From Methylococcales bacterium (GTDB lineage: Bacteria; Pseudomonadota; Gammaproteobacteria; Methylococcales; Methylomonadaceae), in the NCBI GenBank assembly GCA_030693155.1, contig JAUYBJ010000057.1, positions 10,275 to 74,274 on the forward strand: 64,000 bases of DNA. Direction: 5' to 3'. Every line of letters begins with the position of its first letter. Within the stretch, counting starts at the first letter, position 1. Positions 18,081 through 60,530 of this stretch are shown one piece after another. Under the pieces are notes generated by a model that worked only from the letters and a program-made list of their open reading frames with translations, had not been told where the DNA came from and searched no databases. Both the position numbers and the translations under genes were made by a program.

Positions 18081-18081
18081 T

Positions 18082-24345: not shown

Positions 24346-24403
24346 GCTTCTAAATTTCCCCATGATATGCATACCTACTGAAATTTTTAACAGGAGAAAC
24401 CCC

Positions 24404-43005: not shown

Positions 43006-44286
43006 ATGAAACTATTCAACTTATCGTTGTTTATTCTTTCTCTTGGTATAGGAACATCTACGCCCCTCTGGGCCGCTGATGCGTCTCAAGAGACCAATAC
43101 CTACCAATCATCCTTTGATGATTACAAACCCCTATCTGAAGACAACGTGTCAGATTGGAAATCTATAAACGTGCCTTCAAACAGTGGCGGCCATGCCGGA
43201 CACTCTATGGCTGGCATGCAACATGAAATGACGCCAGAACAGATGGCTAAAATGCCTGCCGACGGCAAGAAAATGCCTGACATGGAGGGTATGGACCATA
43301 GCAGCATGGCAGGCGTGGAAAAAGCCGCGCCAGACAACATGCAAGGCATGGATCACAGCCAAATGAAGCATGATCATGCCATGGCGCCAATGGCTGGGAT
43401 GGACCATTCTAAAATGGCTGGCATGAATCAAGACAATATGAAGTCCATGCCTGATAGCAAGTCAGCAATGCAACCCATGAAAAAAGAAGAGATGCCAGAA
43501 ATGAACCATGAAGATATGGCTGGGCATGATCACGGTGGGTCTGATATGAAAGGGATGGACCATTCAAAGATGAATGAGTCAAAGCCGAATGACATGCAAC
43601 CAAGTCAGGAGGGTGGCGCGCAAGACGAATCTCAACCACACGAGCACGCATCTACACAAGCATCTGAACATGCAGGCATGGCAATGCCCTCAATGGCTGC
43701 ACCAACAACACAAGCTACACCCTGGCAGATAATCCCTAATTTTCATCCGATTGTGGTGCATTTCCCCATTGCTTTAACCATCATTGCCTTTCTGTTGAGT
43801 ATCGCTGCTTACGCACGGCGCAGCCATCCTGTCTCTGCGCAACTGGCTGCCGCCGGTCACTTTACCCTGTGGCTCGCGGCAATAGGGGCTGCTGCGGCTG
43901 TATTATTTGGCTGGCTCGCATTTAACTCGGTCAATCATGATGATGCAGGACATGCGGCTATGTTGTTACACCGTTCATGGGCCATACCAACGGCTATAGG
44001 CTTGATCTTGCTCGCTAGCTGGGATGCATGGAAATACCGTATCAATGAATTGATATCGGTGCCAATGCTGTTTTTACTTTTCCTGCTTTCTCAAGCAATC
44101 GCAGTGACAGGATGGCTGGGAGGAGAAGTGGTCTACCGTCATGGCATAGGCGTGTTATCACTGCCAGCCAGCGAAGGCACCGGCCATGGTCACCATAATA
44201 GTACAAAAGGCACCGCCGCTAAAATAGGTTCTGATAAACCTACAGAACAGCATGATGATGAAAAAGGAGAATCTCATGAACACTAA
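43006..44286 (+). CDS. Fusion of periplasmic Met/His repeats (GMDHSxM) and a DUF2231 membrane domain
   Basis: Signal peptide. Four GMDHS(S/Q/K)M repeats. Then FHPIVVHFPIALTII…GGEVVYRHGIGVLSLPASE and a His-rich tail. Confidence 0.65.
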   Translation: MKLFNLSLFILSLGIGTSTPLWAADASQETNTYQSSFDDYKPLSEDNVSDWKSINVPSNSGGHAGHSMAGMQHEMTPEQMAKMPADGKKMPDMEGMDHSSMAGVEKAAPDNMQGMDHSQMKHDHAMAPMAGMDHSKMAGMNQDNMKSMPDSKSAMQPMKKEEMPEMNHEDMAGHDHGGSDMKGMDHSKMNESKPNDMQPSQEGGAQDESQPHEHASTQASEHAGMAMPSMAAPTTQATPWQIIPNFHPIVVHFPIALTIIAFLLSIAAYARRSHPVSAQLAAAGHFTLWLAAIGAAAAVLFGWLAFNSVNHDDAGHAAMLLHRSWAIPTAIGLILLASWDAWKYRINELISVPMLFLLFLLSQAIAVTGWLGGEVVYRHGIGVLSLPASEGTGHGHHNSTKGTAAKIGSDKPTEQHDDEKGESHEH

Positions 44287-45664
44287 TACACCACATGCAG
44301 CTTTCAAATCTCGTACTGTAATCGTCCTTATCAGTGCCAGTATTGCGCTAGGCGGTTGTGCTACTTTTTCAAAAGATGGTGGTTTTGGCGCTGTGCAAGA
44401 AACTGCTAAAAAACACATCAAGCAAGAAGTGGTATGGCCAAAAACTGAAAGTGAAAAGAATAAAGTCACAGAACGCGTAAACGAATTATTATCAAAACGT
44501 TTAGATGTAGAGCAAGCCGTACAAATTGCTATCCTCAATAACAAAGGGTTGCAGGCGGATTTTTATAATCTTGGTATATCGGAAGCCGATTTGGTGCAGG
44601 CTGGTCGTTTGCCTAACCCTAAGTTTTCTATGCTTTATACACGTAATGACGGTGATTATAAGATCGAACAAATTCTGACTTTTAATATTTTCTCGCTGAT
44701 AACCATGCCAAAAATGCAAGAAATCGAACGTCAGAGATTTGTGCAAACTCAGAAAAAAACCGCTTTTGAAGTGATTAAAATCGCCAATCACACACGTATA
44801 GCCTATTTCAATGCAGTCGCGGCAACAGAACAGGTGCGCTATAGCGAGCAAGTAAAGGAATCTGCAGAAGCCAGTGCTGAATTAGCAAGAAGGATGGTTA
44901 AGGCAGGTAACTTTAACAAGCTGCAGCAAGCACGTGAACAGAACTTTTATGCAGATGCAGCACTAGATTATGCAAATGCTAAAAATAAGCAAGTATCCGC
45001 ATATGAAGCGCTATCACGCTTACTAGGCGTATCAATTGATCAGCTGATTTTGGAAGAACGGCTACCTGACCTACCTAAGTCACTCACTGAGTTGCAGCCA
45101 TTTGAGAAAGCAGCTTTTGAACAGCGCCTGGATTTACAGGCCATCCGACTGGAAACTGATGCATTAGCTAAACAATTAGGGCTCACCAAGACGACACGTT
45201 TCATCAATGTGCTAGAAATTGGTCCTGCAAGAGTATTAGAAGGTCCTCGTAGCGAACCTTATAAAAAAGGGGTAGAGCTCTCATTCGAGTTACCAATATT
45301 TGACTGGGGCACTGCACGCGTCGCACGGGCTGAATCCATTTACATGCAATCAGTGAATCGGGCCGCACAATTAGCAATCAATGCTCAGTCTGAAATACGC
45401 GAGGCCTACAACACCTATCGTACCAATTACGATATGACAAAGCATATACGGGATGAAATTGTGCCGCTTCGCAAAAAAATTCTGCAAGAAAATCAACTTC
45501 GTTACAACGGTATGCTGATAAGTCCATTTGAACTATTTGGTGACGCACGCGCACAAGTTACCAGTGTGCAAAGCTATATCGAGTCATTACGTGAATTCTG
45601 GGTGGCCGATAGTGCATTACAAATGACGCTGATTGGTAACGAAAATATGATGGAAGGAAATTAA
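44276..45664 (+). CDS. Outer-membrane efflux lipoprotein (TolC/OprM family)
   Basis: Lipobox IALGGCAT. ATG 44276 follows AAAGGAGA and overlaps the previous gene by 11 nt. Size and repeat structure are OMF-like. Confidence 0.7.
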   Translation: MNTNTPHAAFKSRTVIVLISASIALGGCATFSKDGGFGAVQETAKKHIKQEVVWPKTESEKNKVTERVNELLSKRLDVEQAVQIAILNNKGLQADFYNLGISEADLVQAGRLPNPKFSMLYTRNDGDYKIEQILTFNIFSLITMPKMQEIERQRFVQTQKKTAFEVIKIANHTRIAYFNAVAATEQVRYSEQVKESAEASAELARRMVKAGNFNKLQQAREQNFYADAALDYANAKNKQVSAYEALSRLLGVSIDQLILEERLPDLPKSLTELQPFEKAAFEQRLDLQAIRLETDALAKQLGLTKTTRFINVLEIGPARVLEGPRSEPYKKGVELSFELPIFDWGTARVARAESIYMQSVNRAAQLAINAQSEIREAYNTYRTNYDMTKHIRDEIVPLRKKILQENQLRYNGMLISPFELFGDARAQVTSVQSYIESLREFWVADSALQMTLIGNENMMEGN

Positions 45665-45665
45665 A

Positions 45666-47060
45666 ATGGATTTTTCTAAATTTAGTAGGCGTGACTTTTT
45701 TAAATTAGCAGGTGCTGGCATCGCCGCATCTACTGTAAGCAAAGTCGCGATGGCCGCATTGCCAGAAATTGTTTCAACTGAACAAGCGAATACTCAGGCA
45801 CCATTACACCCCAATACTGGTAGACCATATAACCCTGTTGTCACACTCAATGGCTGGAGTCTTCCTTGGCGTATGAATAAAGGCGTAAAAGAATTCCACC
45901 TAGTAGCCGAACCAGTACTGCGTGAAATGGCGCCAGGTATGAAGGCTCATTTATGGGGTTATAACGGGCAAAGTCCAGGTCCTACGATTGAAGTGGTTGA
46001 AGGGGATAAAGTAAGGATTTATGTGACGAACCGATTGCCTGAAATTACCAGTATTCACTGGCATGGCCAGCGATTACCTAATGGCATGGATGGCGTAAGC
46101 GGGCTGAATCAGCCGCCCATACCGCCTGGTAAGACTTTTATGTATGAATTTGAGGCAAAGCGTGCGGGCACGTTTATGTATCATCCCCATGCTGATGAAA
46201 TGCTGCAAATGGCGATGGGTATGATGGGGAGCTGGGTCACACATCCTAAAAACCCAAAATTCATGCCTGTGGATCGTGATTTTGTCTTTCTGCTGAATGC
46301 ATATGATATTGATCCTGGCAGCTACACACCTAAAGTTAACACCATGTTGGATTTCAATCTATGGACATTTAACAGTCGAGTTTTCCCTGGGATCGAACCT
46401 ATTGTCGTCAAAAAGAATGATCGTGTTCGTATTCGCGTTGGCAATCTCACGATGACGAATCATCCGATTCATTTACACGGACACGAGTTTCAAGTCACCG
46501 GTACTGATGGTGGATGGGTTCCAGCTTCTGCTCGCTGGCCTGAAGTAACAACGGATATCGCTGTAGGACAGATGCGTGCTATAGAGTTTATTGCAAATGA
46601 GCCTGGTGATTGGGCATTTCACTGTCATAAAAGTCATCACACCATGAATGCAATGGGGCATGACGTGCCTACATTACTTGGCGTTAAACAAGGGGACTTG
46701 ATGAAAAAGATTGGAAATTTAGTACCTGAGTATATGCCGATGGGTGAAACAGGCATGTCTGAGATGACAGAAATGGCTGAGATGATGGATATGCCGCTTC
46801 CTGAAAACACTTTGCCTATGATGACTGGTAAGGCTCAGTTTGGTGCTGTTGAAATGGGCGGCATGTTCACTACAGTCAAAGTCAGGGAAGGGCTTGCCCG
46901 TAATGATTACAAAGATCCTGGTTACTTTAAACATCCTAAAGACACTGTGGCAGGCGAGGTTGCAAATGATTTACCTCCAGTAGAACGCTCAGATATGACG
47001 GTTCCTGAAAGTGGGGTGGAAATGAAAGTACGCAAACCGATGGGTCATACGGGGCATTGA
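45666..47060 (+). CDS. Tat-exported multicopper oxidase (short form)
   Basis: SRRDFFKLAG Tat motif. Copper ligand motifs HWHG, YHPHAD, HPIHLHGHEF, HCHKSHH. Met-rich segment. Confidence 0.8.
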   Translation: MDFSKFSRRDFFKLAGAGIAASTVSKVAMAALPEIVSTEQANTQAPLHPNTGRPYNPVVTLNGWSLPWRMNKGVKEFHLVAEPVLREMAPGMKAHLWGYNGQSPGPTIEVVEGDKVRIYVTNRLPEITSIHWHGQRLPNGMDGVSGLNQPPIPPGKTFMYEFEAKRAGTFMYHPHADEMLQMAMGMMGSWVTHPKNPKFMPVDRDFVFLLNAYDIDPGSYTPKVNTMLDFNLWTFNSRVFPGIEPIVVKKNDRVRIRVGNLTMTNHPIHLHGHEFQVTGTDGGWVPASARWPEVTTDIAVGQMRAIEFIANEPGDWAFHCHKSHHTMNAMGHDVPTLLGVKQGDLMKKIGNLVPEYMPMGETGMSEMTEMAEMMDMPLPENTLPMMTGKAQFGAVEMGGMFTTVKVREGLARNDYKDPGYFKHPKDTVAGEVANDLPPVERSDMTVPESGVEMKVRKPMGHTGH

Positions 47061-47939: not shown

Positions 47940-50270
47940 ATGAGCCTGGATAGCCCTGTATCGTCATTATTAAAAGATCCAGTCTGCGGTATGACGGTGA
48001 CGGGAAAGTCGCCTCATATTTTCAACTATAAGGGTGAGCCAGTTTACTTTTGTAGCGCAGGTTGTAAAGCAAAATTTGCTGCCGACCCAGCCAAGTATTT
48101 GGCTAAAGTTACAATCCCTGAAACCACAATATTAGCAACAAAATCTACGCTCTCAGCAGTCATCCCCACTGGTACGATCTACACCTGCCCGATGCACCCA
48201 GAAGTACGACAAGACCATGCTGGCGTTTGTCCTAAATGTGGCATGGCATTAGAACCAGAAATGCCTAGTTTAGAAGATGATGAGAGCCCTGAATTGGTAG
48301 ATTTCAAACGGCGTTTTATATGGACGCTGCCACTGACTATCAGCGTTACTACTCTGGCGATGGTAGGCCACAGGCTGCAATGGTTTGAAATGGCCACCCA
48401 AAGCTGGATTGAGCTCATACTTTCATTACCTATCGTGCTGTGGGCTGGTTGGCCGTTCTTTGTACGTGGCTTTCAATCCGTCACCAATCGCAGCCCGAAT
48501 ATGTGGACATTGATAGGCTTAGGCACTGCTGCAGCATTTATTTACAGCGTTGTGGCCACGGTTATACCAAATGTGTTCCCAGCATCTTTCATGGCAATGG
48601 GGCGCGTAGCTGTCTACTTTGAAGCCGCAGCAGTGATTATTTCGTTAACATTACTTGGCCAAATCTTAGAACTTAAGGCACGTTCACAAACTTCTGCTGC
48701 GATTAGATCTTTACTTGGCTTATCGCCTAAAACAGCCCGTAGGATTAATACGGATGGCACAGAAGAAGATGTACCCCTAACCCACGTGCATGTAGGTGAT
48801 ATGTTACGCATACGCCCAGGTGAAAAAGTACCAGCGGATGGTGTCGTCACAGAAGGTGCAAGCGCTGTGGATGAGTCCATGCTCACTGGTGAGCCTATGC
48901 CCGTGACTAAAAGTATTGGTGATAAGCTCATTGGCGCAACGCTTAATACCAACGGCGCATTAATTATGCGCTCAGAAAAAGTAGGTTCGCAAACGGTGTT
49001 GGCCAGTATTGTACAAATGGTCATCCAAGCCCAACGCTCTAAAGCGCCAATGCAACGCATGGCCGACCAAGTGGCAGGCTATTTTGTAGTGACGGTTGTT
49101 GGTATTGCGCTGCTAACATTTGTAGTCTGGGGAATATTTGGGCCAGAGCCAAGCTGGGTATATGGCTTAATCAACGCGGTTGCGGTACTTATCATTGCTT
49201 GTCCTTGTGCTTTAGGCTTAGCAACGCCTATGTCAATCATGGTTGCTACTGGAAAGGCTGCAACTCAGGGCGTGCTATTTCGTGACGCAGCTGCCATTGA
49301 AAATTTCCGCAAAGTTGACACTTTAATTGTAGACAAGACTGGCACATTAACCGAAGGTAAACCCCGCTTTAATCAAGCTTTAGCAATATCTGGTTATACC
49401 GAAGATGAGGTGTTGCGCCTAGCAGCAAGTCTTGACCAAGGTAGTGAACACCCATTAGCGGATGCCATTGTGAAAGCCGCGCGTGAAAAGAGTTTAGCTA
49501 TCAATAAAGTAGAGAATTTCGAATCCAGTACAGGCATTGGTGTGCAAGGTCGTTTGAATGGTAAACAATTGGCATTAGGTAATACAGCGCTAATGACACA
49601 GCTTAATATTCAAATAGAATCATTAAAAGCACAAGCAGAAGAATTACGTGCTACAGGTGCTAGCGTCATATATCTAGCAGTTGATGGTCAGCTTGCGGGA
49701 TTGCTATCAGTATCAGACCCAATCAAAGAAAGCACAGTCGAAGCATTAGCCACACTAAAAGCGTCTGGCATGCGTGTCGTTATGGCGACAGGTGATGGCA
49801 TTGTGACAGCAAAATCAGTGGCTGCGAAATTAGGAATTGAAGAATTCTACGGAGAAGTCAAACCAGCCGACAAACTTGCATTGGTCGATAAGTTACAACG
49901 TGAAGGGCGTGTGGTGGCAATGGCGGGAGATGGTATCAACGATGCGCCTGCGTTAGCCAAGGCCGATGTAGGTGTGGCAATGGGCACAGGGACTGATGTA
50001 GCAATGAATAGTGCACAAGTCACACTCGTTAAAGGGGACTTGCGTGGTATTGCGCAAGCGCGTGCCATCTCTGAACAGACCATTGCAAACATGAAACAGA
50101 ATTTAGGTTTTGCTTTCGTCTATAACGCTTTGGGTGTGCCATTAGCCGCAGGTGTACTTTACCCATTTACAGGTTGGTTACTCTCGCCGATGATTGCAGC
50201 ATTGGCTATGAGTTTGAGTTCAGTTTCTGTGATTACTAACGCATTACGTTTGAGAAGATCTAGCCACTAA
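47940..50270 (+). CDS. copA: Cu(I)/Ag(I)-type P1B ATPase with YHS and CPMHPE…CPKCGM N-terminal metal sites
   Basis: [17 protein letters not shown]…[11 protein letters not shown] ([12 protein letters not shown]), [17 protein letters not shown]. Confidence 0.85.
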
Positions 50271-50282
50271 ATTACTTGCCAG

Positions 50283-50486
50283 TTACTTTATAAAATCAGA
50301 TTTTCTTTTGGCTTTTCGCTTGGCCAATGTATCAACCATCCTACGCTTAGAGTCTTCTTGATACTTTGCCGCCAGATCGGGAGGAAAACCAAGATCAAGA
50401 AATATGTTGGTGCCCGGTTTAGTGATATGTGATGAACCATGGAACTGTGAATCAATTTTAGGTAATTCTTTTTTCAATTTGCTCAT
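50283..50486 (-). pseudogene. HigA/XRE-antitoxin N-terminal fragment (no HTH)
   Basis: …KPGTNIFLDLGFPPDLAAK… resembles the sGNvFaDLGf leader of HigA2-type antitoxins. The ORF ends before any HTH region. Confidence 0.3.
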
Positions 50487-51057
50487 TCTCCATACCTCAT
50501 ATAGAAAAGGCCACAAACCTTACACGGCATTATCCGACTCTCAAGACCGGGTGCGGAACGTAAAGTTGATGAGCATATATCAATTGTATAACTCTTAATT
50601 AAAAAGAGAAATTGCTTTGATGGAAGCATATCTGTGCCGCCCGAAAAAGAACCATCTAAGTGTGTTAGCGCACAGACTGTCATTATTGATAAGCAGATTA
50701 TCCGAAGGGTTAAACTTTTTCTCGTCAGGCATTCATTAACATAATAATTGTTTCAGATAAGTTAAGCATTTATGCATCCCTTGACATAGATCAAAGAAGG
50801 AAGAAATAAGCTTTGATAATATTTGTTTAGCAGAGTATATTTTTAACGACACAACACTTATGGAGACTGAAAATGAAAACACATTTGTATGTTGCTAGCA
50901 CTTTAGTTTGGTCTTTTAACACTCAATGCTTATGCGACAGATAGCAACCTAGATGAAGCTTCTACGAAGACCAAACCTCATTCTCGCCCAATTAATATCT
51001 GATAGTTTCTATTTTTTAATCTACTAGGAGTTTTTTATTATGAGAAGGACTGACACA

Positions 51058-51447
51058 ATGAAAACCTCAATACTGATTTCTTCGCTCGTTTCAATTATCT
51101 TCGCTGCTCCTATCGTATCAGCGAATGAGATGACCTTAGGCACGGTCCCGCATTCAATACGGATTAGTGCTAATGCACACGAGTTGCTGAGTGTGCAGCC
51201 CTCATCACAAGTAATTGTCTCTGATTTTCATCTGGCCATGATGGATGAAATGGAAGATATGGATGAAATGAACGATAAGGGCAAAATGAAAAATAAAGAT
51301 GGTAAGGCTAAAAAGGGAGTTGGGAAAAAGGGCACAGCACAGCCTTCAGGCAAAAAATCAGCACCAGTTGATAGCAATCCTCCATCCACTGAAATGTCTA
51401 ATACGCCCGCTCCAATGACTGAGTCTCCTCCAATGTCTGATATGTAA
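51058..51447 (+). CDS. Secreted low-complexity Met/Asp/Lys-rich protein
   Basis: Signal peptide …APIVSANE, then MMDEMEDMDEMNDKGKMKNKDGKAKKG and a Pro/Ser-rich tail. Confidence 0.45.
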   Translation: MKTSILISSLVSIIFAAPIVSANEMTLGTVPHSIRISANAHELLSVQPSSQVIVSDFHLAMMDEMEDMDEMNDKGKMKNKDGKAKKGVGKKGTAQPSGKKSAPVDSNPPSTEMSNTPAPMTESPPMSDM

Positions 51448-51483
51448 TTCAACTTCAAGGTGCTTGCAGATACTTTTTGAAAG

Positions 51484-53676
51484 ATGGTAACTACTTTAAT
51501 GAGACCTTTTTTTACGAAAACTCGTTTTTTTTCAAAACTTTCAGTGTTTCAGTGGATCAGTCAAATCATACGAATTTTTGACTTGGTAGTGCTGGTGGTT
51601 TTATTGGGGCAATCACCAGCATTCGCGCAACCAGAGCAGAGTGATCATGAGTCTCATCATCCCGTTGCTGCGCCTAGTACCACTCCATCTAGTAGTATGC
51701 CATCAAGTAACCCACCAATTAGCAATACACCAAATAACCCAACTCTGGATGCCGCTAGTCCCGATGCCGCTCTGATGGGTAGCCCAGGACCTGAACAAAA
51801 TTCTCTGCAAAGCTCCCCGTCAATGCCAGGCTCTACAACTAGTGGAGCGGGAATGATGGAGGGCATGCAGAAAATGATGAAAGACATGATGGCTCCCAGC
51901 AAGCAAGATGGCGTCGAAGGCTGCTGCGGGGCAGGGGGATTGCGCAAAGAGCTTTACCCTTACCTGATGAGCCTACCCGCATGGACACGTGAGGGTAGGC
52001 TTGATGTAGAGCGTCTTGCTCAAGAGCGCGTACGCGAAAGCACGAGTATTCTCCAGACTTCACACACAAGCTTATTGAAAGCACTGCAAACAAGCGACAT
52101 CAAGGCAGCCGAGCGAGCACTACAGCAATCTCGCGATAGTTTGGGCCTGATAGCAAGTGGTGTCGCCGCGCATCGACTCCTTATCGAAGGCGCGCCGCCG
52201 CAGGATGTTGCCGCACAATGGTTTAAGCTAGAGATGAACCTTGCGCCTACTAGTATGGCTGGCGATTCTGATGTATTGCATGGTGTGACGCCTTTACACC
52301 TATTTGCGATGGGTCTGCTCATAGCTTTTGCACTGGCGATGGTCGTCATGTATTTCTTCAAGATGCGCCGCGCAGCAAAGCTCTTTGGGCGTATTAAGTC
52401 TGACTCTGGATCACCGCCACCTGGAGCGGCACCACCACTTAGCGGAGCACCCAGCCCGCCTTCGCGAGTGACTCCGCCAGATGCAAACTTAGCATCACCT
52501 AAAGTTTTACCGCCCTCCACAGTATCCGATCCAAAGTCGCCCGCTGCTGAAAAGCCTCAGGCGACTGACTCATTGCCTAAAGAGTCCTTTACCGCCTTAA
52601 ACGCGGTAAAGGACTTAGCGTCGCCACTAACTGCTAATTGGCGAGGTCGGCTGCGTGTGGGGAGTATTATTAGGGAAACGCCGAACGTCAAAACCCTGCG
52701 TCTGCTACCTGTATCTAGCGCTAGCCTCATGCCTTTTACCTTTGTTCCCGGTCAGTTCCTCAACCTCTCGTTTTCGATTGGCGGGGCGAGAATGAATCGC
52801 TCCTACTCTATCTCATCTTCCCCAATGCGGCGGGAATACGTAGACTTGACAGTGAAACGAGAGCCACGAGGTGCAGTCTCTCGGCATATCGATGATCTGC
52901 TCAAGGTTGGCAACGAGATCGAGGTGGGTGGTCCCGTCGGGCGGTTTACGTTTACTGGCGCAGAGGCACAGAGTATTGTACTGATCTCTGGCGGCGTGGG
53001 AATCACCCCTATGATGAGCATCGCGCGCTATCTGACGGAGCAGTCGTGGCCTGGCGACATCTATTTTATCTATGGGTGTAGTACTCCGGCAGAATTAATT
53101 TTTGCCAAAGACATTGCAGAGCTTCAGGCTGCGAATCCAAAGCTGAACGTCACAGTCACGATGTCGCGTCCAGAAGGCACTGACTGGAAAGGTTCGCAGG
53201 GACGCATCACCAAAGAATTGTTAGCGCAGGCGGTACCTGACATTGCTTCGCGCAGGATCCATCTCTGTGGGCCGCAGGTGATGATGGAAGCGGTCAAGGC
53301 GTTACTTGCTGAGTTAAAGGTTCCCCCAGAACAGGTGAAGACCGAGAGTTTTGGTACAGCGGCACCCACCCCCGCAACCGACGGTACAGCCGCAAAACCC
53401 ACCACTCCTGCGACTGGTCCATTGGTCACTTTTTCTAAGAACAACAAATCAGCCAAAATTCATGTTGATCAGACTATTTTAGAGCTCTCCGAAGAATTAG
53501 CTATCGGTATAGAGTTCTCTTGTCGCGTAGGAACTTGCGGCATTTGCAAGGTAAAGATGACTTCTGGTGAAGTCGAGATGGCGGTAGAGGATGGACTCGA
53601 TGCAGACGACAAGGCCAATAATATCATTTTGGCCTGTCAGGCAAAGCCAAAGGGTCCTGTCGAGGTCGAGGCGTAG
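51484..53676 (+). CDS. Single-pass membrane protein: periplasmic Met-rich/helical domain + cytoplasmic FNR-like reductase + 2Fe-2S ferredoxin
   Basis: N-terminal signal (…SPAFAQ). GMMEGMQKMMKDMM. TM at about aa 270-292 followed by KMRRAAK. RSYS (FAD), GGVGITP (NAD(P)H), C680-x4-C-x2-C-x29-C718. Confidence 0.7.
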   Translation: MVTTLMRPFFTKTRFFSKLSVFQWISQIIRIFDLVVLVVLLGQSPAFAQPEQSDHESHHPVAAPSTTPSSSMPSSNPPISNTPNNPTLDAASPDAALMGSPGPEQNSLQSSPSMPGSTTSGAGMMEGMQKMMKDMMAPSKQDGVEGCCGAGGLRKELYPYLMSLPAWTREGRLDVERLAQERVRESTSILQTSHTSLLKALQTSDIKAAERALQQSRDSLGLIASGVAAHRLLIEGAPPQDVAAQWFKLEMNLAPTSMAGDSDVLHGVTPLHLFAMGLLIAFALAMVVMYFFKMRRAAKLFGRIKSDSGSPPPGAAPPLSGAPSPPSRVTPPDANLASPKVLPPSTVSDPKSPAAEKPQATDSLPKESFTALNAVKDLASPLTANWRGRLRVGSIIRETPNVKTLRLLPVSSASLMPFTFVPGQFLNLSFSIGGARMNRSYSISSSPMRREYVDLTVKREPRGAVSRHIDDLLKVGNEIEVGGPVGRFTFTGAEAQSIVLISGGVGITPMMSIARYLTEQSWPGDIYFIYGCSTPAELIFAKDIAELQAANPKLNVTVTMSRPEGTDWKGSQGRITKELLAQAVPDIASRRIHLCGPQVMMEAVKALLAELKVPPEQVKTESFGTAAPTPATDGTAAKPTTPATGPLVTFSKNNKSAKIHVDQTILELSEELAIGIEFSCRVGTCGICKVKMTSGEVEMAVEDGLDADDKANNIILACQAKPKGPVEVEA

Positions 53677-53678
53677 CC

Positions 53679-54425
53679 ATGAATGAGCGAGAGCGAGAAG
53701 GTATCGTCGTTACTGGCGTAATCAGCATTCTGCTTTTGACTTGGCTCGGCTTTTTCCTGCATCGCTCACCACTTTTTCCGGGCAGTGGAATTGGGGCAGT
53801 ATTCGGCATAGTGGGGGCAGTACTCATGCTGCTGCCCCTTGTTTACACGGTCGCAAAGCGTATTCCTTTCTTCAACGCCCGAATAACACCGCTCATTTCG
53901 ATGCAATCTTTGATGACCATGCACGTTTACGCTGGTATCGTTGGCCCGCTGCTCGCGATTATTCATACTGGTCACAAATTCGATAGCTGGCTGGGAATTG
54001 CCCTGACGACAGTGATGCTGCTGGTTGTTGTGAGCGGATTTGTGGTTCGGTATCTGCTCACTTTTGTCGCCAATGACATGAAAGAAAAATTGGCCCTGCT
54101 ACAAACGGCTAGGGGTGATCTTGACGCTGCTTGGGGGGTGATCGAGAACGCTCAAGCCGAAACGAGCGCTCTTCGGAAAGCGCCTAGATTCATGGCCAGT
54201 CTCGCGTCATTGGTAAACATGCGTCCTGCTAGTGAACCCGCAGCTGAGGTGACGCGTATCGCCGATTCAGTGGCAGACCTGGAGTACTCGGTGCGCATGC
54301 ATGAAATCTTCAAGTTTTGGTTCGGCTGGTCTCTAAAGCTGCATATCGTTCTCTCCGTCTTTCTGTATCTTCTTCTCACTTTGCACATCTGGGCTGGCGT
54401 GCAATACGGGCTTAGGTGGATTTGA
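53679..54425 (+). CDS. 5-TM membrane protein with two His-x13-His pairs (putative dihaem b carrier)
   Basis: H82/H96 sit in one TM segment and H222/H236 in another. Starts 2 nt after the previous stop. Confidence 0.45.
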   Translation: MNEREREGIVVTGVISILLLTWLGFFLHRSPLFPGSGIGAVFGIVGAVLMLLPLVYTVAKRIPFFNARITPLISMQSLMTMHVYAGIVGPLLAIIHTGHKFDSWLGIALTTVMLLVVVSGFVVRYLLTFVANDMKEKLALLQTARGDLDAAWGVIENAQAETSALRKAPRFMASLASLVNMRPASEPAAEVTRIADSVADLEYSVRMHEIFKFWFGWSLKLHIVLSVFLYLLLTLHIWAGVQYGLRWI

Positions 54426-54429
54426 ACGC

Positions 54430-55335
54430 ATGAGCAAAATAAAATTCTTTGTTGTAGCTTTTGCCGTGGTCGCCCTCGGGATTACCATCGGCATTGAGTG
54501 GGAAACGAGCGACTCACGCACACGCAATTTTTGGCAACAAGCTGTAGCCCCGGGAGCACTGTCACAGTCACATGCATCGCTCTCAAACAATTGTGTTGCT
54601 TGTCACACGCAAGTGAAAGGTGTCGAAGCTGGGAAATGCATCGCCTGCCACGCCGACAACTCAGTACTTTTACAACGTCAGCCAACGGCGTTTCATGCAA
54701 ACATTCAAACCTGTACAGGCTGTCATGTAGAGCACCAAGGGACGGTGCGCATGCCGACAACCATGGATCATGCATTGCTAGCGCAAGTTGGTCATAAGCA
54801 ATTAAAGGCTGCATCGGAGGAAGGGTTAAGTCTTGAAGACATCGAAGTAGCGGTTAAATTATTAGACAGGACGCCTCGCTCTGTTACACAGAAACCGCTA
54901 GCAAACACCCGCAGTAGTGATACGCAGATGAGTGACGATTCAAATATGAGCGCTGAAACCAAAATCGCCGTTGAACCACCAAGCGCGCCTAAGTTGCCGG
55001 TCAACCACCCAGGCTTAAGCGCGAATGAATCGATGCTCAACTGCGTGAGCTGTCACGCGACTAAGGATCGCCATCAGGGCTTGTTAGGTAAAAATTGTGT
55101 TCAGTGTCACGCCACAACTCAGTGGACGGTTTCTGAGTTTCGCCATCCATCTTCGCGCTCGACCAATTGTGCGCAATGTCATTTAGCACCACCTAGTCAC
55201 AACATGATGCACTTTTCAATGATGTCAGCCCCGATTGCGCGTCAACCGAATGCTAAAGTGAATCAGTGCTATCTTTGCCACCAGACGACTTCGTGGAACG
55301 ACATCAAAGGCGTGGGTTTGATTAAGCATCATTAA
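54430..55335 (+). CDS. Membrane-anchored heptahaem c-type cytochrome
   Basis: N-terminal TM anchor. Seven CxxCH motifs (CVACH, CIACH, CTGCH, CVSCH, CVQCH, CAQCH, CYLCH). Confidence 0.8.
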   Translation: MSKIKFFVVAFAVVALGITIGIEWETSDSRTRNFWQQAVAPGALSQSHASLSNNCVACHTQVKGVEAGKCIACHADNSVLLQRQPTAFHANIQTCTGCHVEHQGTVRMPTTMDHALLAQVGHKQLKAASEEGLSLEDIEVAVKLLDRTPRSVTQKPLANTRSSDTQMSDDSNMSAETKIAVEPPSAPKLPVNHPGLSANESMLNCVSCHATKDRHQGLLGKNCVQCHATTQWTVSEFRHPSSRSTNCAQCHLAPPSHNMMHFSMMSAPIARQPNAKVNQCYLCHQTTSWNDIKGVGLIKHH

Positions 55336-55501
55336 ATATGTTTAAACACAGAAAGAATTTATACAAGAAAAATATATATTTGAATTGACTCAAATAACAA
55401 ATGATAAATCCTAACTTTAGACCTTATGAAACGTATGCTATTGACTATATTGTAATCAAGTCATACCTAAAAACGGCAAATCGGGTGGATACAGGAGTAG
55501 C

Positions 55502-56794
55502 ATGGAAATGACAGTCGACTTTGAGTTGGAAAATTTACAGCGCCAAACATTCGATTATTTTCTGTATGAAACGAATCCCGATAATGGTTTGGTGATTGAC
55601 AAGACTTCTGCAGATTGGCCTGCCAGTATTGCCGCTACAGGTCTTGCGTTGGCCTGCTATCCTGTAAGTGTCGAACGCGGATTTATGTCGCGCGCAGCGG
55701 CGATAGAACGCACGCTTGCGACGTTGCGTTTTTTCTGGAACAGTCCCCAAGGGGCCGAGTCCGACGCGACGGGCTACAAGGGTTTTTACTATCATTTTCT
55801 CGACATGCAGACTGGTCGACGCGCTTGGCAATGCGAACTTTCAACAGTGGATAGCGCTTTTTTGTTGGTCGGCGCATTGACGGCCGCTATTTATTTCGAC
55901 GCCAGTACAAACGAAGAGAATGAAATTCGCACCCTTAGTGACGCAATTTATCGCCGTGCCGATTGGCAATGGGCACAAGACCAGGGCGCAACGGTAACGC
56001 ACGGCTGGAAACCAGAAAGTGGTTTCCTTAAATATCGATGGGAAGGCTACGATGAGGCGCTGCTGCTATATATCCTAGGGCTGGGCTCGCCGACGTATCC
56101 TTTGCCAGAACATAGCTATGCTGCATGGGCATCCACTTACCAGTGGGAAAGCTGTTATGGACAGGAATATCTTTACGGCGGCTCTCTATTTATCCATCAG
56201 CTCTCGCATGTCTGGATAGACTTTCGTGGTATCCAGGACGCATTCATGCATGATAAAGGCATCGACTATTTTGAGAACAGCCGTCGTGCAACTTATGTGC
56301 AACAGCAGTACGCGATCAACAACCCACTCAAGTTTGAAGGCTATGCCGCATGCTGCTGGGGTATTACTGCAAGTGAAGGCCCCGGCCCCAACACCATCAA
56401 AATAAACGGCATTGACCGACAGTTTTTCGATTACGTGGCACGGGGCGTACCATATGGACCAGACGACGGCACTCTTTCACCTTGGGCGTTGGTCGCGTCG
56501 TTGCCGTTCGCTCCCGAAATAGTTCTGCCCGCGCTTCATCATTGCATTCATCAAGCCAAGTTGACAGAGTTCAATTCTTACGGGTTCAAAGCATCTTTCA
56601 ATCCCACGCACCCGGGAATACCTGGCAACCCTTATGGTTGGTGGGTCTCACCGTGGCATTTCGGGCTCAATCAAGGACCGATCATTTTGATGATCGAAAA
56701 TTACCGTACTGGCCTGTTGTGGAAATTAATGCGAAACTGCCCATACATCGTTAAAGGCTTGCTACGCGCCGGGTTCAATGGCGGTTGGTTGTGA
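55502..56794 (+). CDS. Glucoamylase-family / GH144-like (beta-1,2-glucanase-like) protein
   Basis: …NGLVIDKTSADWPASIAATGLALACYP…GFYYHFLDMQTGRR…ELSTVDSAFLLVGAL… matches my recollection of the family pattern. Confidence 0.5.
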   Translation: MEMTVDFELENLQRQTFDYFLYETNPDNGLVIDKTSADWPASIAATGLALACYPVSVERGFMSRAAAIERTLATLRFFWNSPQGAESDATGYKGFYYHFLDMQTGRRAWQCELSTVDSAFLLVGALTAAIYFDASTNEENEIRTLSDAIYRRADWQWAQDQGATVTHGWKPESGFLKYRWEGYDEALLLYILGLGSPTYPLPEHSYAAWASTYQWESCYGQEYLYGGSLFIHQLSHVWIDFRGIQDAFMHDKGIDYFENSRRATYVQQQYAINNPLKFEGYAACCWGITASEGPGPNTIKINGIDRQFFDYVARGVPYGPDDGTLSPWALVASLPFAPEIVLPALHHCIHQAKLTEFNSYGFKASFNPTHPGIPGNPYGWWVSPWHFGLNQGPIILMIENYRTGLLWKLMRNCPYIVKGLLRAGFNGGWL

Positions 56795-57263
56795 AAGCCT
56801 CGCTTCCCTGTGCAGGTAAGCTGGCACCAGCATTATTATGGGCAAATATGTCGCGCCTGCACCAACTGGCTCGAACCTGCTATATCCCAATTATGCAGAG
56901 TTTGCTAAAGCAGAGGGGGAGATTAATTCCTTGCGCCGACCGATGCGAGTGTCTTAACAATAAAAAAGCTCTCCACCATCTTGCTAAGTTCGACAACGTA
57001 CAGACAAAGATTCTAATAGTGGGCATGTTGAATATTATGGGGATTGCTCTAAATTCAAAACAGTCGCCTTTAATAAACCACCCCCGTCTTCCATTAGCGT
57101 GGCGAATAATTTCAATCTCGACTACATTTTATGGATCTAGTCCTTCGTGAATACCACTAATACTTGGTTGTCGTTAATGGTTTTTTCAACCAAATTTTGG
57201 CTCTACCGAGCTGATTTACAACGTAGCAAAAAATTGACAATAGTCACCTTAGGAGAATAAATC

Positions 57264-57614
57264 ATGTATCACCATCTCAGAATGCTCTTAAATGTATTAG
57301 CAGTATCGCTTATTACCGTCGCCTGCGGTCAGACCGATGCTGGAATCAGTACAAAAGTCAAAACGAACCTTACAGCGGATGAAATAGTGAAGGCCGCTCT
57401 GATTAATGTTGACGTACAGGATAAAATCGCCACCTTGTCAGGATCTGTCGATACCCAAGCAGTTAAGGAACGAGCCGTCTCAGTGGCGCGCGCTACCGAC
57501 GGCGTCACCGACGTCATTGACAAGATTACAATTCAGGAACAGGGCTATGGATCAGGTTCTGAGCACGGTCGCGAAATGATGGGAAGGGAAAATAGGGAAG
57601 GTAGAGATCATTAA
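57264..57614 (+). CDS. BON-domain lipoprotein
   Basis: Lipobox LITVACG. VDVQDKIATLSGSVDTQAVKERAVSVARATDGVTDVIDKI. Confidence 0.7.
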   Translation: MYHHLRMLLNVLAVSLITVACGQTDAGISTKVKTNLTADEIVKAALINVDVQDKIATLSGSVDTQAVKERAVSVARATDGVTDVIDKITIQEQGYGSGSEHGREMMGRENREGRDH

Positions 57615-57774
57615 CTTGAAGGAAAGTACGCATAGCCAGGGCAGATAGATGATGATGACAAGGTCAGTGGGTAGCGTATAGGTTGTGTAGATATAATTTT
57701 GTGTCCTCAACTGCCCTTTAAAGACTGCTCATATTGTCGGCTCAGATAGTGATGTAAAAACAGAAAGGCTGAAT

Positions 57775-59733
57775 ATGAAAAACAGCTCGCCAAACAAAAC
57801 TCGTGGGATAAAATCATCGCAGCAATATCAGCGACGACATTTCCTGAAAACTACCGTTGCAGTGGGAGCAGGGTTGGTGCTTCACAGGTTGTCCCCAGCT
57901 TACGCAATTGACACAGAATCTACTTTGATTAGCTCCGCCTCAAATAACTCTACTACGGCCACTGATCTCGTCATCGCCAAGCATAAGCTCAACATTGCAG
58001 GGCGCGTGGCAATGCCAACCGTAGTAAATGGTTTGCTACCAGGCCCTATATTGAGGTATCGCGAAGGTGAGACCGTGACAATTCGCGTGACCAACCAACT
58101 GCAAGAAACAAGCTCTATCCATTGGCATGGATTGATCGTTCCCGAGAACATGGATGGCGTTCCAGGGGTAAGTTTCGCCGGTATTCGACCCGGCGAGACC
58201 TTCACCTATCAATTCAAGCTTCACCAAAGTGGCACTTACTGGTACCACAGTCATTCTGGCAATCAAGAACAGGCGGGGCTATACGGCCCATTGATTATCG
58301 ACCCAATCACACCCGACCCATACTCCTACGATAGCGAATGCATAGTGATGCTGTCGGATTGGACCTTCGAGGATCCTGCGCGCGTGCTGGCGAAGATGAA
58401 GAAATTCGGTTCGTACTACAACTTCAACCGGCGAACGATGGGCGATGTTTTTCGCGATGCAAACCTCAACGGCTGGCGCTCAATGATTAAGGACCGAATG
58501 GAGTGGGCAAAGATGCGCATGGATCCTACAGACATTGCCGACGTGACTGGTTTCACCTATACCTATTTTCTTAACGGCCAATCGGCTGATCAGAATTGGA
58601 CTACGCTATTTAAGCCAGGTGAGCGAATCCGTATACGCTTTATTAATGCCGGTGCGATGACGCATTTTGATGTTCGCATCCCAGGGCTAAAGATGACGCT
58701 GGTGCAAGCCGATGGTCAGAATGTCGAGCCGGTTACCGTTGATGAGTTCCGTATCGCTCCGGCTGAAACTTACGACATGATTGTACAACCACAAACCGAA
58801 GAGGCATACACTATCTTTGCCGAAACGATGGATCGTAGTGGTTACGCAGCTGGTACGTTGGCACTACGTTCTGGACTAAGCGCGCCGATCCCGGCGCGTC
58901 GTGTACGTCCACTTCGGACCATGGCCGACATGGGTATGTCCGGCGATGCGATGGGCAATATGGCAATGCCATCTAAAGACGGCATACCAAGTGCAGACGG
59001 GATGTCCGAGATGGAAATGCCATTGGACGCTACGCCTACGATGTCTGGTATGGAATCGCCAGCGAGTAAAGGTGATGCTGGGATGGATGGAATGGCAGGT
59101 ATGGAAATGCCATCAGATGACATGCCCGCAATGCCAGTCATGGAAAATGGATTGAGCACAGTACCCGAAAAAGCTGAAACTATACCAGCTAAACCGCATG
59201 GGCCAGATCGACATGGCCCTGGAAATTCCACGGTCGCGGAGATGCCCGTCAGTCGAATTAACGAACCCGGTAGCGGGCTAGGGGATGCTGGCCGCCGAGT
59301 GCTGGCGTATGGTGACTTGCGGCGATTGTCCGCAGACGGGCCGGAAGGTACACCCGAACGTGAGATTGAACTCCATATTACTGGCAATATGGAGCGGCAG
59401 ATATGGGGGTTCGATGGGAAGAAATATTCCGAGGCCAAAGAACCTATCCCTTTTGAATATGGCAAATGGCTTCGAATCACCTTCGTCAACGATACGATGA
59501 TGGATCACCCGATGCATTTGCATGGCATGTGGATGGTGTTGAACAACGGCACAGGGGTAAAGCGTCCTCGGAAACACACAATCAACGTCAAGCCAGGCGA
59601 ACGGCTGTCATTCGATGTGAAACCTGACGAGATTGGCAAGTGGGCGTTCCATTGTCATTTGCTTTTTCATATGGAGCTCGGCATGTTGCGCGTGGTCTCA
59701 GTGACCGATCAGAAAGGTAAGGTGCAGTCATGA
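57775..59733 (+). CDS. copA: CopA/PcoA-type Tat-exported multicopper oxidase
   Basis: RRHFLKTTVAVGAG Tat signal. HWHG, YHSH, HPMHLHG, HCHLLFHME. Long Met-rich insert (MGMSGDAMGNMAMP…). Confidence 0.85.
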   Translation: MKNSSPNKTRGIKSSQQYQRRHFLKTTVAVGAGLVLHRLSPAYAIDTESTLISSASNNSTTATDLVIAKHKLNIAGRVAMPTVVNGLLPGPILRYREGETVTIRVTNQLQETSSIHWHGLIVPENMDGVPGVSFAGIRPGETFTYQFKLHQSGTYWYHSHSGNQEQAGLYGPLIIDPITPDPYSYDSECIVMLSDWTFEDPARVLAKMKKFGSYYNFNRRTMGDVFRDANLNGWRSMIKDRMEWAKMRMDPTDIADVTGFTYTYFLNGQSADQNWTTLFKPGERIRIRFINAGAMTHFDVRIPGLKMTLVQADGQNVEPVTVDEFRIAPAETYDMIVQPQTEEAYTIFAETMDRSGYAAGTLALRSGLSAPIPARRVRPLRTMADMGMSGDAMGNMAMPSKDGIPSADGMSEMEMPLDATPTMSGMESPASKGDAGMDGMAGMEMPSDDMPAMPVMENGLSTVPEKAETIPAKPHGPDRHGPGNSTVAEMPVSRINEPGSGLGDAGRRVLAYGDLRRLSADGPEGTPEREIELHITGNMERQIWGFDGKKYSEAKEPIPFEYGKWLRITFVNDTMMDHPMHLHGMWMVLNNGTGVKRPRKHTINVKPGERLSFDVKPDEIGKWAFHCHLLFHMELGMLRVVSVTDQKGKVQS

Positions 59734-60530
59734 TTACTTCGTCAAATAAAAAATACCGAGCATGCCATGCTACTTTCTTGCTGGCCTGCAAGCTATTGGC
59801 TTCAATGGCATTGATGACTTCATTGGTCAAAGCTGAAGTAACCCCTGAAGAGTTACCTTCTCCCGTGGAGGATAGTGCGGTTCGCAGTTTCTTACTGATC
59901 GATCAGCTTGAACACACCACAACGCGTTACACGGGCGGTGATAAAGATGGCGATGCGGTGCGTTTCAATACGTCCGGATGGATCGGCGGCGACTACAACC
60001 GGCTCTGGTTATACACTGAAGGCACGAAAGTCTATGACGGCAAGCTGGAGGATGCAGATGTGCAGCTTCTATATGGTCGCCTCATTGCTCCATTTTGGGA
60101 TTTGCAAGCGGGCCTGCGCTATGCCAAGCCGCTATCGGATGGGCCATCGCGCAGCTACGCAGTGTTCGGTGTCCAAGGACTTGCGCCTTATCGATTTGGG
60201 GTGCAGGCCGCGACTTTCTTAAGCGAGCGAGGCGATATTTCCGCGCGGGCTGAGTTGGAATATGAGCTGCTGCTAACCCAGCGCTGGATTTTACAGCCGC
60301 GCTTAGCTGTCAATTACGCTCTTCAAGAAGTAAGAGATCAAGGCATAGGTCGCGGCTTGAACGACATCGAACTCGGATTACGCTTACGTTATGAGATCAA
60401 GCGCGAATTTGCCCCCTATGTTGGTGTGTCATGGCAGTCTAGCTACGGCGGAACAGCTGATTTTGCGCGCGACCGAGGTGAAGATGTGAATGAATGGAGC
60501 TTGGTCACTGGGGTTCGATTATGGTTTTAA
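59730..60530 (+). CDS. copB: CopB/PcoB outer-membrane copper resistance protein
   Basis: ATGA coupling to the oxidase gene. …DQLEHTT…WIGGDYNRLWLYTEG…WDLQAGLRY… beta-barrel pattern. Confidence 0.8.
   Translation: MITSSNKKYRACHATFLLACKLLASMALMTSLVKAEVTPEELPSPVEDSAVRSFLLIDQLEHTTTRYTGGDKDGDAVRFNTSGWIGGDYNRLWLYTEGTKVYDGKLEDADVQLLYGRLIAPFWDLQAGLRYAKPLSDGPSRSYAVFGVQGLAPYRFGVQAATFLSERGDISARAELEYELLLTQRWILQPRLAVNYALQEVRDQGIGRGLNDIELGLRLRYEIKREFAPYVGVSWQSSYGGTADFARDRGEDVNEWSLVTGVRLWF

Follow-up and report, generated by a model that had tools for sequence, protein, structure and literature searches.

A putative NAD(P)H-driven transmembrane haem conduit encoded next to copper resistance genes in many bacterial phyla

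Enzymes of the NOX/FRD type carry two bis-histidyl motifs on their third and fifth transmembrane (TM) helices, with a spacing of 13 to 14 residues (PMC5676040). In a 2020 review of bacterial copper handling, the cupric reductases comprise CcoG, NDH-2, and two uncharacterised activities, and haem-dependent surface cupric reductases are ascribed to eukaryotes (PMC7558416). Current models of periplasmic copper handling consist of oxidases, chaperones, and pumps, with no dedicated electron source. The window analysed here, a stretch of 64,000 nucleotides from a Methylococcales bacterium (contig JAUYBJ010000057.1, positions 10,275 to 74,274 of the forward strand), contains a compact trio of genes within a copper island. 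These genes encode protein A, with an FNR-type reductase and a [2Fe-2S] ferredoxin domain, protein B, a five-TM protein with four invariant histidines, and protein C, a heptahaem cytochrome c. Domain content, motif conservation, topology, synteny, and copper linkage were obtained by computation, and the trio is read, with what we judge to be about an even chance of being right, as a four-module transmembrane conduit and periplasmic metal reductase, most likely of Cu(II) to Cu(I), that aids copper resistance. A transmembrane haem conduit driven by NAD(P)H is a kind of system already known, which here comes with two unclassified protein families. Searches of the open-access literature aimed at this system found no description of it, and earlier work cannot be excluded; the initial annotation of the window likewise knew of no characterised copper or silver resistance determinant with this layout.

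Conserved features of the three proteins

The three open reading frames (ORFs) are arranged as follows, with coordinates taken from the ORF list.

51484-53676, forward strand: gene of protein A, 730 amino acids
53679-54425, forward strand: gene of protein B, 248 amino acids
54430-55335, forward strand: gene of protein C, 301 amino acids

The intergenic gaps are 2 nucleotides between A and B and 4 nucleotides between B and C, which confirms the tight packing described initially. The three protein sequences are identical to database entries of Methylotenera mobilis, where A is labelled 'oxidoreductase / 2Fe-2S cluster-binding protein', B 'hypothetical protein', and C 'cytochrome c3 family protein'.

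Homologues of protein B number at least 1,852 at 90% clustering, and a HMMER search yielded 1,046 cluster representatives at 50% clustering. The histidines of B are located at positions 28, 82, 96, 99, 208, 222, and 236. A curated alignment of 54 sequences with identities ranging from 25% to 87% (alignment A2) has seven invariant residues of note, the four histidines H82, H96, H222, and H236 and also G120, G244, and W247; across 77 full-length representatives, mostly at 30% to 66% identity, the four histidines are 95% to 99% conserved. The pairs H82/H96 and H222/H236 lie in two TM segments exactly as the initial annotation had described, and the conservation on which its haem-binding proposal hinged is thus borne out.

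The AlphaFold2 model of B (pLDDT 91) contains helices at residues 3-26, 37-61, 75-97, 104-166, and 185-244. The model and hydropathy together give five TM helices, of which TM4 and TM5 are prolonged into a long antiparallel helical hairpin. Averaged over the family, loop 2 has 5.3 Lys plus Arg residues and the region immediately following TM4 has 4.1, against approximately 1 in loop 1, in loop 3, and at the C terminus, which indicates that B has its N terminus inside and its C terminus outside and that the hairpin between TM4 and TM5 lies in the cytoplasm. It follows that TM3 and TM5, the His-bearing helices, both run from the inside to the outside. In this predicted topology, approximately 7 residues separate H82, and likewise H222, from the boundary on the cytoplasmic side, with H96 and H236 another 14 residues outward. 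Matched depths, i/i+14 spacing, and parallel helices make up the geometry of two stacked bis-His haems, and B is a putative di-haem b protein, with H82 and H222 as predicted ligands on the cytoplasmic side and H96 and H236 on the periplasmic side. The dihaem geometry of the NOX/FRE/YedZ type that had been proposed for B therefore stands with regard to the His spacing and the use of helices 3 and 5, and it does not extend to the rest of the protein, which has five TM helices, an added hairpin, and no above-threshold family match. Two further histidines of B, H28 (codon 53760-53762) and H99 (codon 53973-53975, in the motif HTGH), are conserved at 78% and 88%, respectively, and H272 of A (codon 52297-52299) is invariant. 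All three are predicted at the periplasmic membrane boundary, where they could form a third haem site or a metal site at an interface between A and B.

No Pfam or NCBIfam family matched B at curated thresholds. The three families most often hit below them by members of the 54-sequence set were DUF4405 (28/54; best E value, 5e-5), Ferric_reduct (19/54 at E ≤ 1; 0.0026), and Ni_hydr_CYTB (14/54; 2.4e-5), all of which we take to belong to the Pfam clan of di-haem cytochromes. These weak matches cover the His-bearing TM2-TM3 region or the whole protein, and the B protein of the window has no match of its own to Ferric_reduct (PF01794). Reversed sequences of ten B proteins gave zero matches to the three families. 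NCBIfam scans of individual B members produced only scattered matches to unrelated membrane proteins, which indicates that weak TM matches need a reversed-sequence control such as the one run for Pfam. Membership in a well-known non-haem family, which would have spoken against a haem protein, was not found for B, and the di-haem clan, absent from the reversed controls, was the only coherent weak signal. In a nonsignificant comparison of the B profile with the PDB, the stretch 'H-iyaGllGaiLall-HTGH', which holds H82 and H96, aligned with 'H-KLVGQVMFALAIV-HTGAH' in the membrane domain of NOX5 (5o0t), presumably its TM3 haem-ligand helix, and hhalign of the profile against the single E. coli MsrQ and YodB sequences gave no match. 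B is read as a new distant relative that would work like the di-haem domain of NOX/FRD enzymes or of cytochrome b561. It is not a demonstrable member of NOX/FRD, because it has five TM helices instead of six and the extra hairpin.

Protein A is a fusion of a periplasmic single-pass module with a cytoplasmic FNR-[2Fe-2S] reductase. Hydropathy gives two hydrophobic segments, at residues 20-49 and 264-295, and the following parts can be distinguished.

51541-51630, forward strand: residues 20-49, N-terminal hydrophobic segment ending AFA/Q (from hydropathy)
51631-52272, forward strand: residues 50-263, predicted periplasmic module with H55-x-x-H58-H59-P60, a Met motif, and a helical domain
52273-52380, forward strand: residues 264-299, TM helix followed by KMRRAAK (at 293), very highly conserved
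52381-52638, forward strand: residues 300-385, Pro-rich cytoplasmic linker, the site at which the gene is split in other lineages
52639-53364, forward strand: residues 386-627, FNR-type FAD/NAD(P)H module with RSYS (439), GGVGITP (503), and HLCGP (593-597)
53416-53676, forward strand: residues 645-730, plant-type [2Fe-2S] ferredoxin domain with C680-x4-C685-x2-C688-x29-C718

Residues 20-49 are read as a signal peptide that would be cleaved, and a conserved 'AQ' stands just before the HxxHHP motif in the alignment of A (alignment A4). HxxHHP itself, a few residues past the predicted cleavage site, is invariant in this alignment and was found in 53 of 66 homologues. The Met cluster GMMEGMQKMMKDMM starts at residue 123, where the Met motif GM..M..MM..MM spans residues 123-136, and its M..MM part is kept in 60 of the 66 homologues. 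The helical domain of the module is likewise conserved (KELYP.LM.LP ... WFK.EMNL). All of the motifs first listed for A, namely, the Met cluster, KMRRAAK, RSYS, GGVGITP, and Cx4Cx2Cx29C, are present, as is the CCG at residue 147; the Cys pair of this CCG occurs in only 6 of 66 homologues, and its role as a functional motif was rejected. A relationship of the module to LTxxQ/Metal_resist (CpxP/ZraP-like) proteins was suspected and was not confirmed by sequence comparison, in which the module matched no Pfam family and no PDB sequence. The RefSeq version of A has 600 amino acids (WP_198291930.1), and its start omits the signal peptide and the invariant HxxHHP (51484-51873); other sources give 725 to 730 amino acids. 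The long form is favoured because the N-terminal region is conserved.

Within the TM helix of A, H272, M276, and Y290 are invariant, and the helix is followed by KMRRAA.LFGRI and the Pro-rich linker. The C-terminal half matched Pfam FAD_binding_6 (residues 416-489; E value, 1.2e-13), NAD_binding_1 (residues 500-605; 5.8e-20), and Fer2 (residues 655-723; 2.3e-14), all above the family cut-offs. Its nearest NCBIfam models are GbcB (234 bits versus a cut-off of 500), Hcr (205 versus 383), and PaaE (165 versus 421), all below the equivalog cut-offs. In 30 of 66 loci, A is split into two genes, with the N-terminal module ending in a stop codon and the FNR-ferredoxin beginning with its own ATG, frequently in an ATGA overlap; the separate FNR-ferredoxin has no signal peptide, for example, in the complete chromosome behind locus L038. 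The C-terminal part of A is placed in the cytoplasm because the KMRR stretch directly follows the TM helix and because the split versions start at their own ATG without a signal peptide; the positive-inside counts of B put its loop 2 and the region after TM4 in the cytoplasm. A periplasmic FNR module had been named at the outset as an observation that would speak against the conduit. The description of A as a membrane-anchored FNR protein holds for the window; since 30 of 66 loci encode the halves apart, it denotes a lineage-specific fusion of two subunits. That the two parts are fused in some loci and separate in others ties the periplasmic module to the reductase in Rosetta-stone fashion.

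Protein C, for which at least 1,790 homologues were found, contains exactly seven CxxCH motifs (at residues 55, 70, 95, 205, 223, 247, and 280) and a single N-terminal TM helix, as initially reported. All seven motifs are retained in 75 of 78 homologues that neighbour B, a level of conservation that, like that of the four histidines of B, chance does not account for. The layout consists of the N-terminal anchor, a 3-haem domain, a linker at approximately residues 120 to 200 that is variable and sometimes deleted, and a 4-haem domain (alignment A5). In the same alignment, the seven CxxCH motifs and H48, H89, H102, H114, H215, H239, H257, and H261 are invariant, and these 8 histidines and 1 nearly invariant extra histidine are enough for bis-His ligation of all seven haems. 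C also has two conserved Met/His clusters, RMPTTMDH and PPSHNMMHFSMMS. Pfam matches lie just above the cut-offs for Cytochrom_c3_2 (PF14537; 29.9 versus 25) and Cytochrome_C7 (PF14522; 26.0 versus 24.8), whereas the NapC/NirT/NrfH model TIGR03153 scored 22.5 bits, below its threshold of 134.2. An AlphaFold2 model of C from a 52-sequence alignment had a pLDDT of 49, which was too poor for fold comparison.

Gene order, spread, and copper linkage

A genome scan with one genome per species returned 265 stretches with relatives of the trio, and 80 loci in which B showed 59% to 87% identity were examined. The FNR-ferredoxin gene ends no more than 150 nucleotides upstream of B in 67 of 68 loci, and the cytochrome gene begins no more than 200 nucleotides downstream of B in 69 of 76 loci, so that the synteny of the three genes, which had been put forward as a check on the conduit, extends well beyond the window. 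Phyla with the trio include Pseudomonadota, Planctomycetota, Verrucomicrobiota, Acidobacteriota, Myxococcota, Nitrospira, Elusimicrobiota, and others, a pattern that, at 59% to 87% identity, suggests horizontal spread under strong constraint. The family is carried by 54 plasmids, 27 of which are conjugative, with hosts including Sphingobium, Alteromonas, Legionella, Variovorax, and Bradyrhizobium. By these counts of homologues, genome stretches, and plasmids, the module is widespread, and it lies next to copA/copB.

Copper genes were counted within 10 kb of the trio in loci of at least 15 kb (long loci; n = 46). A multicopper oxidase (37 loci), CopB (26 loci), or a P1B-ATPase (27 loci) was present in 43 of the 46, and 9 had no multicopper oxidase within this distance. 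CopA-CopB directly follows C in 8 of 60 loci, giving the order A-B-C-CopA-CopB, and a contiguous CopA-CopB-A-B-C operon was found at 36% B identity (L093/L094). On plasmid pNXO2 of Sphingomonas sanxanigenens, B is annotated as 'iron reductase', a metal-responsive regulator lies upstream, and CopA and CopB lie downstream. Distant variants, with B at approximately 30% identity, encode a small WFK..H..TM protein, a stand-alone Fer2 protein of 89 to 94 amino acids, B, and a multihaem cytochrome and have no fused FNR, which indicates that the conserved core consists of the TM module, the ferredoxin, B, and the cytochrome c. Judged by these gene orders, the ferredoxin is the constant cytoplasmic partner of B.

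In the window, the trio is surrounded by the following features.

15454-21204: Cus-like RND system
43006-47060: module of a DUF2231 membrane protein, OEP, and a Tat-signal multicopper oxidase, upstream of the trio
at 44252: OEP
at 45666: Tat-type multicopper oxidase, 464 amino acids
at 47535: HMA protein
47940-50270: P1B-ATPase, directly upstream of the trio
51040-51447, forward strand: small secreted ORF, 135 amino acids, Met/Asp/Lys-rich, 36 nucleotides upstream of A
57775-59733, forward strand: CopA-type multicopper oxidase, a recurrent genomic partner of the trio
59730-60530, forward strand: CopB (Pfam CopB match), a recurrent genomic partner of the trio

The copper-island setting assigned to the trio at first is therefore upheld, and the island also holds several further P-type ATPases and DUF305 proteins. 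An OEP and oxidase pair of the type in the window recurs beside the trio in Planctomycetota loci (for example, L032, L036, L039, and L043). The 135-amino-acid ORF begins with a signal peptide and also contains a stretch rich in Met and Asp (HLAMMDEMEDMDEMNDKGKM) and a tail rich in Lys; it matched no Pfam family, and homologues were found in only the two closest loci, L006 and L007. It is a possible accessory periplasmic metal-binding protein, and its place in the system is uncertain. One P-type ATPase of the island (26164-28869) carries Cation_ATPase_N and Cation_ATPase_C domains, which we take to be the mark of P2-type (Ca/Mg/Na-like) pumps, not heavy-metal P1B pumps, and to be unusual among copper genes. 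A beta-CASP/metallo-beta-lactamase RNase-like gene and an HD-domain gene also lie within the metal island (22987-26195), and a beta-CASP gene adjoins the trio in L093/L094 as well. Between the trio and copA is a PF10091 'putative glucoamylase' gene (55502-56794; E value, 3e-83) with no obvious signal peptide, homologues of which, at 64% to 91% identity, stand beside the trio in 14 of 46 long loci from several phyla. In Variovorax loci, a GH94 gene is also near the trio, and a glucan-related enzyme thus recurs with copper islands. Unrelated hosts share a gene for a Zn-dependent alcohol dehydrogenase that follows the trio at a distance of a few genes (L001, 10855-11889; L089, 10357-11391; L093, 11470-12558), and a DUF1622 gene lies between the trio and the dehydrogenase in L093 and upstream of the trio in L001. 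Speculatively, the dehydrogenase may be a local source of NAD(P)H for the trio. A promoter and terminator scan of positions 50200 to 57800 gave sites no more frequent than in shuffled sequence, and a copper-responsive operator was not searched for.

Proposed electron path and rival explanations

In the proposed path, cytoplasmic NAD(P)H would reduce the FAD of the FNR module of A, from which single electrons would pass to the C-terminal [2Fe-2S] cluster of A and then, in B, to the haem b at H82/H222 near the cytoplasm and to the haem b at H96/H236 near the periplasm. From the haems of B, the electrons would reach the seven c-haems of the anchored periplasmic cytochrome C and finally an acceptor. 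The fourth module would be the N-terminal part of A, with its HxxHH site, its MxxMM site, and its helical domain in the periplasm. The ultra-conserved TM helix of A would probably be packed against B, and the cytoplasmic hairpin of B, at the position of the NOX D-loop, may be where the ferredoxin docks. The His/Met sites of A, of C, or of both would bind copper, and the conduit would work alongside the co-encoded CopA-type multicopper oxidase, CopB, and Cu-ATPases. Cu(II) is the best guess for the acceptor and the weakest step of the model. It is favoured because of the copper linkage and because His motifs (Cu(II)-type) and Met motifs (Cu(I)-type) occur in A and perhaps in C; the copper-type ligand motifs are HxxHHP and M..MM in A and RMPTTMDH and SHNMMHFSMMS in C. 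By established redox chemistry, only outward electron flow is favourable, since NAD(P)+/NAD(P)H lies several hundred millivolts below Cu(II)/Cu(I) and electron export goes with the membrane potential.

Several points weigh against this reading. Haem b binding by B, the direction in which electrons flow, the assembly of the proteins into a complex, and the nature of the acceptor are all elements that we infer. Every family match of B is below the Pfam gathering score, the matches to PF01794 falling under its cut-off of 28 bits, and a Foldseek search of the whole B model against the PDB gave no significant match, the best being cytochrome b561 (4o7g) with a probability of 0.28; the long hairpin drew ABC exporters and BAR domains. 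The Met/His clusters of C may simply be distal haem ligands. A Cu(II) reductase next to a cuprous oxidase looks like a futile cycle, unless the Cu(I) formed is handed on, the oxidase is the acceptor, or the two are active under different conditions. Hand-over of the product Cu(I) to CusCBA has little neighbourhood support, as CusCBA lies within 10 kb of the trio in only 4 to 6 of the 46 long loci. Two plasmids place the trio in other surroundings. On Legionella pneumophila plasmid pH3-D-14 (L086, 822-18717), one flank of the trio holds a complete F-type ATP synthase operon, which has an AtpZ/AtpI-family gene and a gene order presumably resembling that of N-ATPases, and the other flank carries a 1028-amino-acid multicopper oxidase and a DUF2231 protein. 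The Legionella 'copper island' of an earlier report (PMC6989116) is a different locus. On Alteromonas macleodii plasmid pAM1A3 (L088, 7067-13786), the trio directly precedes the orf2-hynD-hupH-hynS genes of a [NiFe] hydrogenase cluster. From the gene order, the Alteromonas B and C are probably the genes named 'orf1' and 'cyt' in an earlier description of this cluster (PMC3102683), where they were considered solely as potential accessories of the hydrogenase. The B protein there has 39% identity, and the four histidines, the seven CxxCH motifs, and the upstream A gene are all kept; this upstream FNR-2Fe-2S gene has apparently never been counted in the hydrogenase cluster.

Both plasmid loci bear on the idea that the trio is a general NAD(P)(H):periplasmic-cytochrome oxidoreductase serving varied enzymes, such as [NiFe] hydrogenase, on mobile islands that bear copper genes incidentally. 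The position before orf2-hynD-hupH-hynS, the Legionella copy beside the ATP synthase operon, and the frequency of the family on conjugative plasmids fit this idea, which is nevertheless decidedly unlikely in our judgement. Orf1 and Cyt are dispensable for maximal HynSL activity in E. coli (PMC3102683). Moreover, copper linkage was found in 43 of 46 loci and still holds at 36% identity, the Legionella locus has a multicopper oxidase too, and the HxxHHP and Met motifs are kept in both the Alteromonas and the Legionella copies of A. The conduit might instead end at the multicopper oxidase or its bound copper, with C feeding the T1 copper, which would prime the oxidase, metallate it, or keep it reduced or would create an NAD(P)H-driven periplasmic sink for O2 and reactive oxygen species in copper stress. 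We know of no bacterial CopA/PcoA-type oxidase that accepts electrons from cytochrome c, so that such a donor would be without known precedent; this acceptor would leave the conserved His/Met module of A without a role, and it would be missing from the 9 of 46 long loci that have no oxidase within 10 kb. It is unlikely on these grounds, even though a multicopper oxidase is the commonest neighbour (37/46) and is contiguous with A-B-C in either order and even though CopA-CopB and the pair of OEP and Tat-type oxidase recur as two different oxidase modules.

Proteins of the periplasm suffer damage under copper stress, and the trio would suit the re-reduction of copper-damaged envelope proteins (Met sulfoxide or mis-oxidised Cys) or the detoxification of peroxide or superoxide. 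Such repair has an analogue in the two-component NOX-like system in which Fre-MsrQ feeds MsrP (PMC5676040). This explanation is quite improbable, since the gene tables consulted for the window and for related loci contain no conserved MsrP-like, Dsb/thioredoxin-like, or peroxidase partner in the cluster and since C has enough histidines for seven bis-His c-haems, which are poor peroxidatic sites. B could alternatively be a His-lined copper channel or transporter, by a logic like that of CopD, and the flanking redox proteins would then be independent of it. A transporter is very improbable, because the i/i+14 His pairs of B sit equally deep on helices that run in parallel, because B resembles the di-haem clan specifically, as the clean reversed-sequence control shows, because B always lies between a ferredoxin and a c-type cytochrome, even in the distant variants, and because it lacks Met or Cys transport motifs; what speaks for a transporter is the copper context, the lack of a family at curated thresholds, and the extra conserved histidines at the periplasmic face (H28 and H99). 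Finally, electrons might flow in reverse, with C oxidising periplasmic Cu(I) and electrons moving inward to NAD(P)+. The sole point in favour of reverse flow is that periplasmic copper is accepted to be detoxified by oxidation of Cu(I), and the process would be strongly uphill by established thermodynamics, would oppose the membrane potential, and would duplicate O2-using oxidases already encoded in the island, so that it is extremely improbable.

If the preferred reading of the trio as an outward conduit to Cu(II) is taken to its end, the system would be the first bacterial counterpart of the metalloreductases at the surface of eukaryotic cells (Fre/STEAP/Dcytb), namely, a horizontally mobile NAD(P)H-powered periplasmic cupric reductase and an integral, overlooked part of Cop/Pco resistance in many phyla. 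This wider claim is possible and somewhat doubtful. Such a reductase would combine a 5-TM di-haem b protein of a new kind with a heptahaem cytochrome c and with a subunit, rich in His and Met, on which copper docks. Periplasmic copper detoxification would then involve deliberately shifting the Cu(II)/Cu(I) couple either way, and models of copper resistance would gain a new step. Two new protein families would be defined, one by the 5-TM His4 protein and the other by the HxxHH/MxxMM single-pass module, and the Alteromonas 'orf1/cyt' genes would be accounted for. A compact, genetically encoded export of reducing power would also be of interest for bioelectrochemistry and metal recovery.

Comparison with known systems

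Relative to NOX and Fre-MsrQ, the new elements of the trio are the [2Fe-2S] relay, the 5-TM His4 protein, the heptahaem cytochrome, and the periplasmic His/Met module. In NOX/FRE/STEAP FRD enzymes (for example, the Cylindrospermum NOX5 5o0t and SpNOX), electrons pass from NAD(P)H through a flavin and two stacked bis-His b-haems to an acceptor outside, as proposed for the trio. B also shows the His arrangement of NOX/FRD, with H82/H96 on the third and H222/H236 on the fifth helix at a spacing of approximately 14. However, B has 5 TM helices, not 6, and a cytoplasmic hairpin of approximately 90 residues in the TM4-TM5 loop, and it remains under the PF01794 threshold. The dehydrogenase is on a separate polypeptide, A, instead of being fused C-terminally, and a [2Fe-2S] step is added, as are the heptahaem cytochrome c and the His/Met-rich single-pass subunit, all in a copper-resistance context.

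E. coli Fre-MsrQ-MsrP resembles the trio in that a soluble FNR-family reductase and a separate haem b membrane protein serve a periplasmic partner (PMC5676040). In contrast to the trio, MsrQ is a 6-TM member of PF01794, the chain leads to a Mo enzyme without an Fe-S step or c-haems, and the genes of Fre and MsrQ do not lie together. No MsrP-like molybdoenzyme gene was found in the neighbourhood within the window or in the gene tables consulted for related loci. Among reductases, GbcB, Hcr, and PaaE share with A the order FAD_binding_6, NAD_binding_1, and C-terminal Fer2 and the RxYS, GGxGxxP, and CGP motifs, but A scores far below their equivalog cut-offs, and its predicted partner is a membrane cytochrome, not an oxygenase. 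NqrF is membrane-anchored and feeds a membrane complex, as A is proposed to do, whereas its domain order is TM-ferredoxin-FNR and its anchor has no periplasmic domain.

CcoG and NDH-2 reduce Cu(II) to Cu(I), as is proposed for the trio, and do so in the cytoplasmic membrane or close to it. CcoG differs in having two [4Fe-4S] clusters and a physiological donor that is unknown, NDH-2 in acting non-specifically via quinol, and neither has b- or c-haems (PMC7558416). A, B, and C have no 4Fe-4S domain match in Pfam or NCBIfam. Cytochromes of the c3/c7 type, NapC/NrfH/CymA, and MtrA resemble C in their N-terminal anchor and their closely spaced, probably bis-His c-haems. Unlike NapC/NrfH, of which it is not a member, C is predicted to receive its electrons from a dedicated b-cytochrome, not from quinol, and its layout of 3 plus 4 haems is unique. 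In genomic terms, the trio shows the linkage by which an accessory module of the Pco/Cop systems would be recognised, with copper genes in 43 of 46 long loci and with contiguous operons.

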